Of a stretch of DNA of 64,000 nt, positions 52,110-54,565 are shown piece after piece. The first letter of the stretch is position 1, and each line of letters opens with the position of its first letter. This stretch comes from a virus (taxonomy: Duplodnaviria > Caudoviricetes), in IMG/VR virus record IMGVR_UViG_3300024346_000005; one strand, given 5' to 3'. A program made the translations under genes and the position numbers. Below the pieces are notes generated by a model, which worked only from the letters and a program-made list of their open reading frames with translations, made no database searches and was not told the origin of the DNA.

Positions 52110-54565
52110 ATGACTGCTACAATTGCTCAACAACGTTCCACAAATACTTGGAACGATTTCTGTGAGTGGATTACTTCCACTAACAACCGTCTATATGTTG
52201 GTTGGTTCGGAGTCCTTATGATTCCTTGCCTTCTTGCTGCTACGGTTTGCTTCATTATCGCTTTCGTTGGTGCTCCCCCAGTGGACATTGACGGCATTCG
52301 TGAACCAGTTGCCGGTTCTCTAATGTATGGAAACAACATCATCTCCGGTGCCGTTGTTCCTTCTTCTAATGCGATTGGTCTTCACTTCTATCCTATCTGG
52401 GAAGCTGCCTCACTTGATGAGTGGCTTTATAACGGTGGACCTTTCCAACTTGTTGTATTTCACTTCCTCATTGGCATCTATGCTTATATGGGTCGTGAAT
52501 GGGAACTTTCTTACCGTCTAGGTATGCGTCCTTGGATTTGTGTTGCTTACTCAGCACCTGTTGCTGCTGCGAGTGCCGTATTCCTTGTGTATCCTTTCGG
52601 TCAAGGTTCTTTCTCTGATGCTATGCCTTTGGGCATTTCTGGTACTTTTAACTATATGCTTGTCTTCCAGGCAGAACATAACATCCTTATGCATCCCTTT
52701 CATATGTTAGGTGTTGCTGGTGTTTTTGGAGGAAGTCTTTTCTCCGCAATGCATAGGGAACTGTGCCCTTGTTGAGTAATCAGCAAGTGAAAATCGGGTG
52801 AACTGCTGGAACCCTAAGTTACTAAAATGTTACTTGACTTATATAAATAACTCTGGTAACATAAACTGTATGACTAATCAGTACTTATCTTTTATTGAGG
52901 AATGTAAATCAAAAACATATCCTCCCAATACTTATCTTGAAGAACACCATATTGTCCCAAAACACGATGGTGGTCTTGATAATCCAGAAAACCTTATTTC
53001 ATTATCTTTTGACGACCACATACTCGCACATAAAATAAGGTACGATGTATACGGTCAAGTTTATGACTTAGCAGCATATAACTTGATGTGTGGTTTTGAT
53101 AGTGAAGGTTGGAGACTTCTTAGAGTTGAAGGTGCCTATAAAACACACGAAGCACTAAGATTATCCAAGAAAAACTTTTGGAGTTCTGATTATCAAAAAG
53201 AAATGTCTGCTCGTTCTGTAAAGTCTGAGTATGCTATGAAAATGAGAAGTATTGGTGGTAAAGTGGGAGGTAAAAATAGGAACAAAAATGTTGCTATTAC
53301 TTCTACTGATAAGTATATTTTCTCTTATACTAAAGTTGAAACAGTTTGTATAATAAACTGTGAAACTGGTGGAGAAGTTTTAGAAGAACTACAAAAAATA
53401 GTTCCCAATCAAAACTTCAAGAGGGTAACACCTCTACTAAAAGGACAAAGAGAAAATGCTTATGGTTGGTCTTGTAAAAAAGTTTAGTAATACGGCAATC
53501 AGCATCCAAGTCCTAGATACATCTAGGAAAGGTTCAGAGACTACCTGAGGGATATAGTTCCCTTAATAACAGGTTTAAGTGCCCGACAACCTAATAAAAA
53601 TAGGTTGATGATATAGTCCACTCCTTATGAAAATAAGGTACAATAGGGGTTCCCTCGTAACCTCTTCACTGGTTCGTGAAACCACTGAAACTGAATCGCA
53701 GAATTATGGTTATAAGTTCGGACAAGAAGAAGAGACATACAACATCGTTGCCGCTCATGGTTATTTTGGACGCCTTATTTTTCAATATGCTTCGTTTAAT
53801 AACTCTAGGTCGCTTCATTTCTTTCTTGCTGCATGGCCGGTTGTAGGCATCTGGTTCACCGCTCTTGGTGTTTCCACGATGGCTTTTAACCTCAATTGGG
53901 GTTCCGTTAAAGCAATTTAACGGCAAACATCGGATGAATTGCTGGAAACCCTCCAAATATAAGGGCAATCAGCATCCAAGTCTTGAGTACACTCAAGAAA
54001 GGTTCAGAGACTACCTGAGGGATATAGTTCCCTTAATAACAGGAATAAGCGTCCGACATCCTACTGGGATGAAGATATAGTCCTCTCCTTAAAGATGGTA
54101 AATTTAAGGAAACAGAGTAATGGTTTTAATTTTAACCAGTCCATCGTTGATAGTCAAAACCGAGTAATTCCTACTTGGGCGGACATTTTAAATCGTGCTG
54201 GTCTCGGCCTTGAGGTCATGCATGAACGGAACGCTAGATTTGTTGGTGTTCTTGCCTAGTAATAGGCATTAGTAAAATCGGGTTAAACGGGGAAACTCTC
54301 TATGAGACAATCCCGTACCAAGTCAGAAAGGGTTAAAGTTTTCTGAAAGGTCTAACGACTAGGTGGTGAGTCCCAACAATAATCCACCCACGAATGCCCG
54401 ACTCCTTAATAAACATAAGGATGAAGAGATAGTCTGAACTTACTAGCGATAGTAAGAAGTAGAGGATAAAGAACCACTACGATAACACAATTGCACAACT
54501 TTCCTTTAGATTTGGCGGCTGCAGAAACAACTTCGGTTGCTCTAACTGCTCCTTCTATTGGTTGA
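52110..54565 (+). CDS. psbA: photosystem II D1 protein; join(52110..52754,53648..53892,54118..54235,54494..54565), 359 aa
   Basis: The four exons total 1080 nt and splice in frame to a complete D1 (AMH|GSL, FNL|NGF with the Leu codon split CT|T, RNA|HNFPLDLA). Confidence 0.97.
52755..53647 (+). mobile_element. group I intron 1 (893 nt, after His215) carrying an HNH ORF
   Basis: P1 GCAT|AG-GGAA-CTGTGC with U.G at the splice site; P10 AGGGAACT/GGTTCCCT; P, Q, R (GTTCAGAGACTA) and S (GATATAGTCC); terminal G. Confidence 0.92.
52870..53487 (+). CDS. intron-encoded HNH homing endonuclease
   Basis: [14 protein letters not shown]...NL......H..AH; TATAAATA at 52842. Confidence 0.85.
   Translation: MTNQYLSFIEECKSKTYPPNTYLEEHHIVPKHDGGLDNPENLISLSFDDHILAHKIRYDVYGQVYDLAAYNLMCGFDSEGWRLLRVEGAYKTHEALRLSKKNFWSSDYQKEMSARSVKSEYAMKMRSIGGKVGGKNRNKNVAITSTDKYIFSYTKVETVCIINCETGGEVLEELQKIVPNQNFKRVTPLLKGQRENAYGWSCKKV
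53893..54117 (+). mobile_element. group I intron 2 (225 nt, inside the Leu297 codon), no ORF
   Basis: P1 AACCT|C-AATT-GGGGTT with U.G; core closely matches intron 1; ends ...ACAGAG. Confidence 0.92.
54236..54493 (+). mobile_element. group I intron 3 (258 nt, after Ala336), no ORF
   Basis: P1 AACGCT|A paired with TGGTGTT (U.G); P AAACGGGGAA, Q AATCCCGTAC, R GTCTAACGACTA, S GAGATAGTC; terminal G. Confidence 0.92.

Follow-up and report, generated by a model that had tools for sequence, protein, structure and literature searches.

Three group I introns interrupt the psbA gene of an uncultivated T4-like cyanomyovirus

How can a phage gene that appears only as a series of fragments encode a complete D1 protein? 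The question is raised by psbA in a 64,000-nucleotide (nt) stretch of viral DNA (the window) from the IMG/VR record IMGVR_UViG_3300024346_000005, whose source is an uncultivated T4-like cyanomyovirus. The open reading frame (ORF) track of the window holds only pieces of the gene, the first being a 221-codon ORF that starts at position 52110. Examination of the locus confirms that this psbA is interrupted by three group I introns. The gene is very probably a mosaic of four exons and three selfish mobile group I introns, all of which would have to be spliced out before D1 can be synthesized.

Joining the segments 52110-52754, 53648-53892, 54118-54235 and 54494-54565 yields an ORF of 1080 nt, free of internal stops, that encodes a D1 of 359 amino acids followed by the stop codon (Table 1). 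Over residues 1-335 the product is ~91% identical to the D1 of cyanophage S-PM2. The introns lie at nt 645, 890 and 1008 of the coding sequence, so that the exon junctions fall after His215, inside the codon of Leu297 (CT/T) and between Ala336 and His337, and a shift of one base at any of the three leads to the loss of a conserved residue. At all three junctions T is the last base of the 5' exon and G the last base of the intron. The original prediction had drawn the same picture. Its claim that excision of the three inserts restores a 359-residue D1 is borne out by in-silico splicing, and the spliced translation gives the junctions it had named at His215, Leu297 and His337. Its assignment of the inserts to group I, with a U.G pair in P1 and a terminal G, agrees with the matches to the group I intron model of Rfam (RF00028), the junction ends and the P1 pairing.

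Table 1. Features of the psbA locus and its immediate surroundings (positions in the window).
Feature	Position	Strand	Basis
PhotoRC-II RNA motif, psbA 5' leader	51982..52072	+	Rfam RF01717, 45.4 bits vs gathering score 39
psbA exon 1, D1 residues 1-215, His215 codon CAT last	52110..52754	+	ORF list, spliced translation; 99% amino acid identity to L058, L059
Group I intron 1, 893 nt, site nt 645, S-PM2-like ribozyme, ORF in L5	52755..53647	+	RF00028 on 3' core
TATAAATA, T4-type late-promoter-like motif, 21 nt 5' of intron ORF	52842..52849	+	Pattern match; putative promoter role
Intron-encoded HNH homing endonuclease, 205 amino acids	52870..53487	+	Pfam PF01844 25 bits vs cut-off 21.4; phrog_655 'homing endonuclease' E 3.3e-18
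psbA exon 2, residue 216 to first two bases of Leu297	53648..53892	+	Spliced translation
Group I intron 2, 225 nt, site nt 890, S-PM2-like, without ORF	53893..54117	+	RF00028
psbA exon 3, third base of Leu297 to Ala336	54118..54235	+	Spliced translation
Group I intron 3, 258 nt, site nt 1008, second ribozyme family, without ORF	54236..54493	+	RF00028
psbA exon 4, His337 to Gly359 and stop	54494..54565	+	Spliced translation
Free-standing Endo VII-family nuclease, 173 amino acids, F-CphI homologue, starts 88 nt past psbA stop	54654..55175	+	Pfam PF02945 78.6 bits

The gathering score of RF00028 is 50 bits. Introns 2 and 3 reach 88.0 and 63.4 bits, respectively, and the 3' core of intron 1 (53428-53639) matches with an E value of 1.9e-9. 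The score of intron 1 is low because its 205-codon HNH ORF, located in loop L5, splits helix P5. Ahead of the ORF, at ~52795-52815, come the 5' strands of P3, P4 and P5, and the 3' strands lie beyond it, which places the ORF between the two strands of P5. After deletion of the ORF, intron 1 aligns base for base with the ORF-less introns of 231-273 nt that occupy site 645 in other contigs, and such introns in contigs L040, L042, L043 and L054 score 83.7-91.2 bits. Across the whole record, RF00028 matches the three psbA introns and nothing else.

Each intron can form a P1 helix with a U.G wobble, measuring 4 base pairs (bp) in intron 1 (where GUGC pairs with the exon bases GCAU), 5 bp in intron 2 and 8 bp in intron 3. 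In 96 introns of related loci, the mean length of P1 is 5.9 bp with the intron's own exon vs 3.4 bp with the exons of other sites, and helices of at least 5 bp are formed in 76% of the own-site cases vs 12% of the cross-site ones. The guide sequences are therefore site-specific. An alignment of 46 S-PM2-like introns, intron 2 among them, contains compensatory changes at half of the consensus pairs in P3-P8 (18 of 36, distributed over P3, P5, P6, the P7 extension and P8), and the S-PM2-like ribozymes are under structural selection. The P1 pairing and the compensatory changes both speak for functional ribozymes.

Two ribozyme families are present in the gene. A core with 84-85% identity over 125-154 nt (84% between intron 2 and S-PM2) is common to intron 1, intron 2 and the psbA intron of S-PM2, and the repeat common to the two introns of the window spans ~130 nt. 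Introns 1 and 2 thus represent the S-PM2 ribozyme lineage, relocated to the new sites 645 and 890. Intron 3 clusters apart from the S-PM2-like introns, and no homology to the S-PM2 ribozyme was found for it. A search of 50,697 GenBank phage records returned no cyanophage match for intron 3 and a resemblance to introns of Clostridium, Streptococcus and Staphylococcus phages. It belongs to a second ribozyme family, established at nt 1008, only six bases away from the position used in S-PM2. All three introns have close copies at the same sites elsewhere, with identities of 97.6% (L031) and 96.7% (L023) for intron 1, 96.3% (L046) for intron 2 and 95.0% (L020) for intron 3. As a separate observation, positions 54284-54316 of the window (nt 49-81 of intron 3) are identical at 33 of 33 positions to unannotated stretches of 12 phiKZ-like Pseudomonas jumbo phages (SL2, PA02, OMKO1 and others), which probably carry related group I introns.

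Intron 1 is the only one of the three that contains a nuclease gene, and both the intron and its ORF are optional. Site 645 is empty in the psbA of L058. Together with L059, L058 is the closest relative of the window gene, and both lack intron 1 and have other members of the intron family at 890 and 1008. At site 645, L039-L045 and L054 have introns that lack the ORF, and such forms are also represented in RNA contigs. The 90%-identity cluster of the HNH protein comprises 599 member sequences. The presence of the HNH gene and the absence of intron 1 from close relatives argue that the intron is spreading, or has recently spread, by homing; optional intron, optional ORF and large protein cluster would together constitute a signature of active or recent homing. 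A search with the HNH protein for chloroplast relatives of intron 1 found 9 relatives, all of them metagenome proteins, and was uninformative as to a chloroplast link. P0007 sits in another site-645 intron, and L275 shows no psbA. A divergent HNH ORF, 47% identical to the enzyme of intron 1, was also observed in the ENA metagenome contig L276 (37-1794), again inside a site-645 intron after His215.

The Endo VII-family gene downstream of psbA offers a second link to homing. Its product is 45% identical to F-CphI of S-PM2 (E 2e-30), and homologues with 86-91% identity are located 3' of psbA in L044, L052, L058 and L059. In S-PM2, F-CphI and the psbA intron form a collaborative-homing pair (PMC6083498). 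Intron 3 and the downstream F-CphI homologue of the window resemble this pair. An Endo VII gene lies 3' of psbA in 15 of the 36 loci with an intron at ~nt 990-1011 vs 10 of the 71 without one (Fisher p 0.003), so the linkage between the nuclease gene and introns at the 3' sites is real but loose.

Through this arrangement, psbA would be transcribed behind the PhotoRC-II leader as a pre-mRNA of ~2.5 kb, and D1 would be translated only once all three ribozymes had excised themselves and ligated the exons. Splicing would proceed by guanosine-initiated transesterification, with the site-specific internal guide sequence (P1 with its U.G wobble) defining the 5' splice site and the terminal G defining the 3' one. 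The introns would be selfish mobile elements rather than parts built for D1. Introns 1 and 2 may be seen as paralogues of the S-PM2 psbA ribozyme with newly acquired guide sequences, and intron 3 most likely interrupts the target of the downstream F-CphI-like Endo VII nuclease, which would provide collaborative homing and self-immunity. The sequences demonstrate where exons and introns meet, to which ribozyme families the introns belong, that P1 is site-specific, that the core covaries, and that the introns vary in presence among relatives and are widespread in other viral contigs; that the introns actually splice themselves, what the two nucleases cut and whether D1 supply is regulated are inferred.

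Group I introns with homing endonucleases are already known from phage psbA, and the gene of the window belongs with them. A psbA group I intron is known from S-PM2 and S-RSM88, and S-PM2 shares with the window an Endo VII-family gene directly 3' of psbA and a PhotoRC-II leader. However, S-PM2 has a single psbA intron, at nt 1002 (after Arg334), whereas the window has none at 1002 and three at 645, 890 and 1008. The S-PM2-like ribozymes of the window thus occupy 645 and 890 with other guide sequences, and the neighbour of the S-PM2 site (1008) is held by the other family. By contrast with the S-PM2 system, which relies on the free-standing F-CphI, intron 1 of the window has an HNH gene of its own.

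A close parallel among isolated phages is S-SRM01, a cyanomyovirus infecting freshwater Synechococcus. Its psbA (1815-4220 in MW015081) consists of four exons and three RF00028 introns, and splicing in silico again gives a full D1 of 359 residues. The introns are found at nt 276 (910 nt, with an ORF), 750 (209 nt) and 1002 (207 nt). As in the window, one of the three introns contains an endonuclease ORF (30% identical to the HNH protein of intron 1) and an F-CphI homologue lies downstream; none of the intron sites is common to the two phages. GenBank annotates this psbA as two partial coding sequences and endonucleases, and in the original description psbA appears as no more than two partial ORFs with a single presumed intron (PMC8557907).

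The original prediction knew of no described phage psbA with three introns; its premise of novelty fails against S-SRM01 in GenBank and dozens of IMG/VR and JGI contigs with two to six introns. Multi-intron phage psbA with introns at 645, 890 and 1008, including the near-identical same-site copies cited above, is already common in databases. No description of a multi-intron phage psbA was found in the openly accessible literature. A 23-mer of the S-PM2-like core occurs in 52 IMG/VR contigs, in every case within psbA, and in 91 stretches of JGI and ENA metagenome contigs; it gave 0 matches in 185,579 prokaryote genomes, and no host copy was seen among them. For intron 3, a 25-mer of the core is present in 49 contigs of IMG/VR, and 48 of these have flanking psbA exon matches, in agreement with the boundary between residues 336 and 337.

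Mapping of the junctions places the recurrent intron sites of viral psbA at 179, 276, 317, 408, 548, 556, 645, 750, 890, ~992, 1002, 1008 and 1011. The sites were mapped by tblastn together with the U...G rule, a procedure that merges twin introns flanking micro-exons (e.g. '993, 527 nt', which Rfam resolves into two introns), and the site numbers ~992-1011 in other contigs are approximate because of this merging. The psbA of L054 has six matches above the gathering score, that of L042 has five, those of L040 and L043 have four apiece, and the partial gene of L031 has five. Two adjacent RF00028 introns around a micro-exon of ~16 nt (sites ~992 and 1008) were observed at the 3' end of psbA in L040 (11339-11868), L042 (6276-6806) and L043 (2744-3258). 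In the metagenome set, which was picked for the presence of the S-PM2-like core, a single junction is found in 8 of the complete genes and two to six junctions in 18. The combination found in the window recurs in L194, which derives from a separate metagenome and is colinear from exon 1 through intron 3 with 90.8% identity over 2601 nt. Other combinations include 645, 890 and 1002 in L183, and 890 and 1008 in L020, L029 and L058. At the same time, no intron is present in 75 of the 80 viral psbA genes that are closest to the gene of the window and have an unbroken exon 1. Multi-intron psbA is a minority state among near relatives, yet recurrent in environmental cyanophages. Past its three-intron region, L194 also contains (3229-3805) a second end of exon 3 with intron 3, followed by another S-PM2-like intron before exon 4; this duplication may be a genuine tandem or may have arisen during assembly.

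Several introns within one psbA are also a feature of green-algal chloroplasts, a likeness that had been pointed out from the outset and proves apt. The psbA of Chlamydomonas reinhardtii has four introns, as against the three of the window. Twort, a Staphylococcus phage, is reportedly a further precedent for three self-splicing group I introns in a single phage gene, orf142, in work said to be by Landthaler and Shub in 1999; the gene, host and intron lineage differ, and there is no link to photosynthesis. The psbA of Oedogonium cardiacum contains ten group I introns, at 179, 276, 384, 408, 525, 548, 570, 645, 754 and 898, with HNH ORFs in L5 (PMC2442088, Table 4). Of the viral sites, 179, 276, 408, 548 and 645, the last being that of intron 1, equal Oedogonium site numbers; the comparison is one of site numbers, and the D1 numbering of the two is identical up to at least His92 and His215. 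When the three sites of the window, which is a phage genome, are mapped against this chloroplast catalogue, only 645 finds a counterpart, and 890 and 1008 have none in that table.

Transcripts provide a further view of the locus. Parts of the stretch are contained in assembled contigs of four metatranscriptomes from four studies. Contigs of two of them have the exact joint of 52754 to 53648, with 21-24 nt on the shorter side, and the intron-2 joint is seen in an RNA contig from an allele that differs at synonymous positions. Further RNA contigs cross unspliced junctions or contain ORF-less forms of intron 1. Because the sides of the joint are short (21-24 nt) and alleles without intron 1 exist, the RNA contigs are compatible with splicing in the phage of the window and do not prove it. 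Two other contigs deserve mention in their own right. X17 joins 54107 back to 53899, within intron 2, and may represent a truncated intron circle or a tandem variant, or else an artefact of the assembly graph at the core that introns 1 and 2 have in common. X20 (284 nt) aligns to intron 3 without mismatch and stops exactly at the 3' end of the intron, with 30 extra letters that do not match exon 4.

The coexistence of unspliced and junction-spanning contigs in metatranscriptomes would also suit an explanation in which the introns are kept for regulation of the D1 supply, with light- or redox-dependent splicing at three checkpoints tuning D1 synthesis in the course of infection, a role already suggested for the single intron of S-PM2 and for psbA of Chlamydomonas. 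Light intensity affects how the S-PM2 psbA intron is spliced (PMC5931967), and introns 1 and 2 have the same ribozyme core; light-regulated splicing in the window is a possibility extrapolated from S-PM2. However, the large intron-free majority among the nearest viral psbA genes with intact exon 1 speaks against a regulatory role, and the variable presence of the introns among near relatives, together with the nucleases that accompany them, fits selfish mobility better. Maintenance of the introns for regulation is therefore considered unlikely.

Reading the gene as a spliced mosaic of exons and selfish introns also has points against it. Intron 1, as found in the window, stays under the Rfam gathering score (44.1 vs 50 bits), and its P1 is just 4 bp long. 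The RNA joint of 52754 to 53648 could derive from the intron-1-less alleles that exist in nature, or from their transcripts. The association between nuclease and 3'-site intron is loose, in that 10 psbA genes without such an intron have the nuclease and 21 with one do not. Finally, the contig that contains the window is a metagenome assembly, estimated to be 60% complete. The short P1 of intron 1, along with the fact that splicing is predicted from sequence, could also be taken to indicate a decaying pseudogene whose inserts are dead intron relics that do not splice, so that no D1 would be made from this copy. This is very improbable, however, since the four exons are in frame and free of stops and their product retains its ~91% identity to S-PM2 D1, the ribozyme cores are conserved with compensatory changes, and other contigs, whose exons are intact, contain these introns with 95-98% conservation. 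Least credible of all is an assembly chimera, in which introns of different phage strains were joined through psbA exons or through the ~130-nt repeat of introns 1 and 2 in a metagenome-assembled fragment from samples where many psbA variants coexist: the colinearity of L194 and the presence of 88-99% of the sampled words of the stretch in at least 14 DNA runs argue against it, as do the contigs that combine 645, 890 and 1002 or 890 and 1008.

The mosaic psbA is set among phage genes. The IMG/VR record that holds the window is linear, 128,515 bp long and an estimated ~60% complete. An hli gene is located directly upstream of psbA, and among the surrounding genes are those for a gp43-type DNA polymerase, a DnaB-like helicase, a ribonucleotide reductase and a tail fibre. 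S-SRM01 and five IMG/VR loci likewise have the PhotoRC-II motif 5' of psbA. Other non-coding RNAs of the window cluster between 32505 and 38610, namely an abiF RNA (32505-32541), six tRNA genes (32550-37751) and a wcaG RNA (38513-38610), and this set resembles the one reported for S-CREM1. S-CREM1 and S-CREM2 were considered as candidate sources, and an intron in psbA is mentioned in the paper on neither.

For the window itself, the value of these results lies in correct annotation: gene callers give psbA fragments, or a short psbA followed by 'hypothetical' ORFs, though a full D1 is encoded. Multi-intron psbA is probably under-counted in censuses of auxiliary metabolic genes. What is noteworthy beyond the window is the wider pattern of two ribozyme lineages over ~13 sites, with up to six introns per gene and sites shared with green-algal chloroplasts, which is undescribed as far as the searchable literature shows. 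It is conceivable, though doubtful, that the S-PM2-like and site-1008 lineages spread to these ~13 viral psbA sites by re-targeting of their guides, and that the five chloroplast-matching sites would point to an exchange of introns or homing endonucleases between cyanophages and chloroplasts. With one ribozyme lineage at many sites of a single gene, viral psbA constitutes a natural system for intron re-targeting, homing and collaborative homing, and possibly for control of the D1 supply at the level of splicing during infection.

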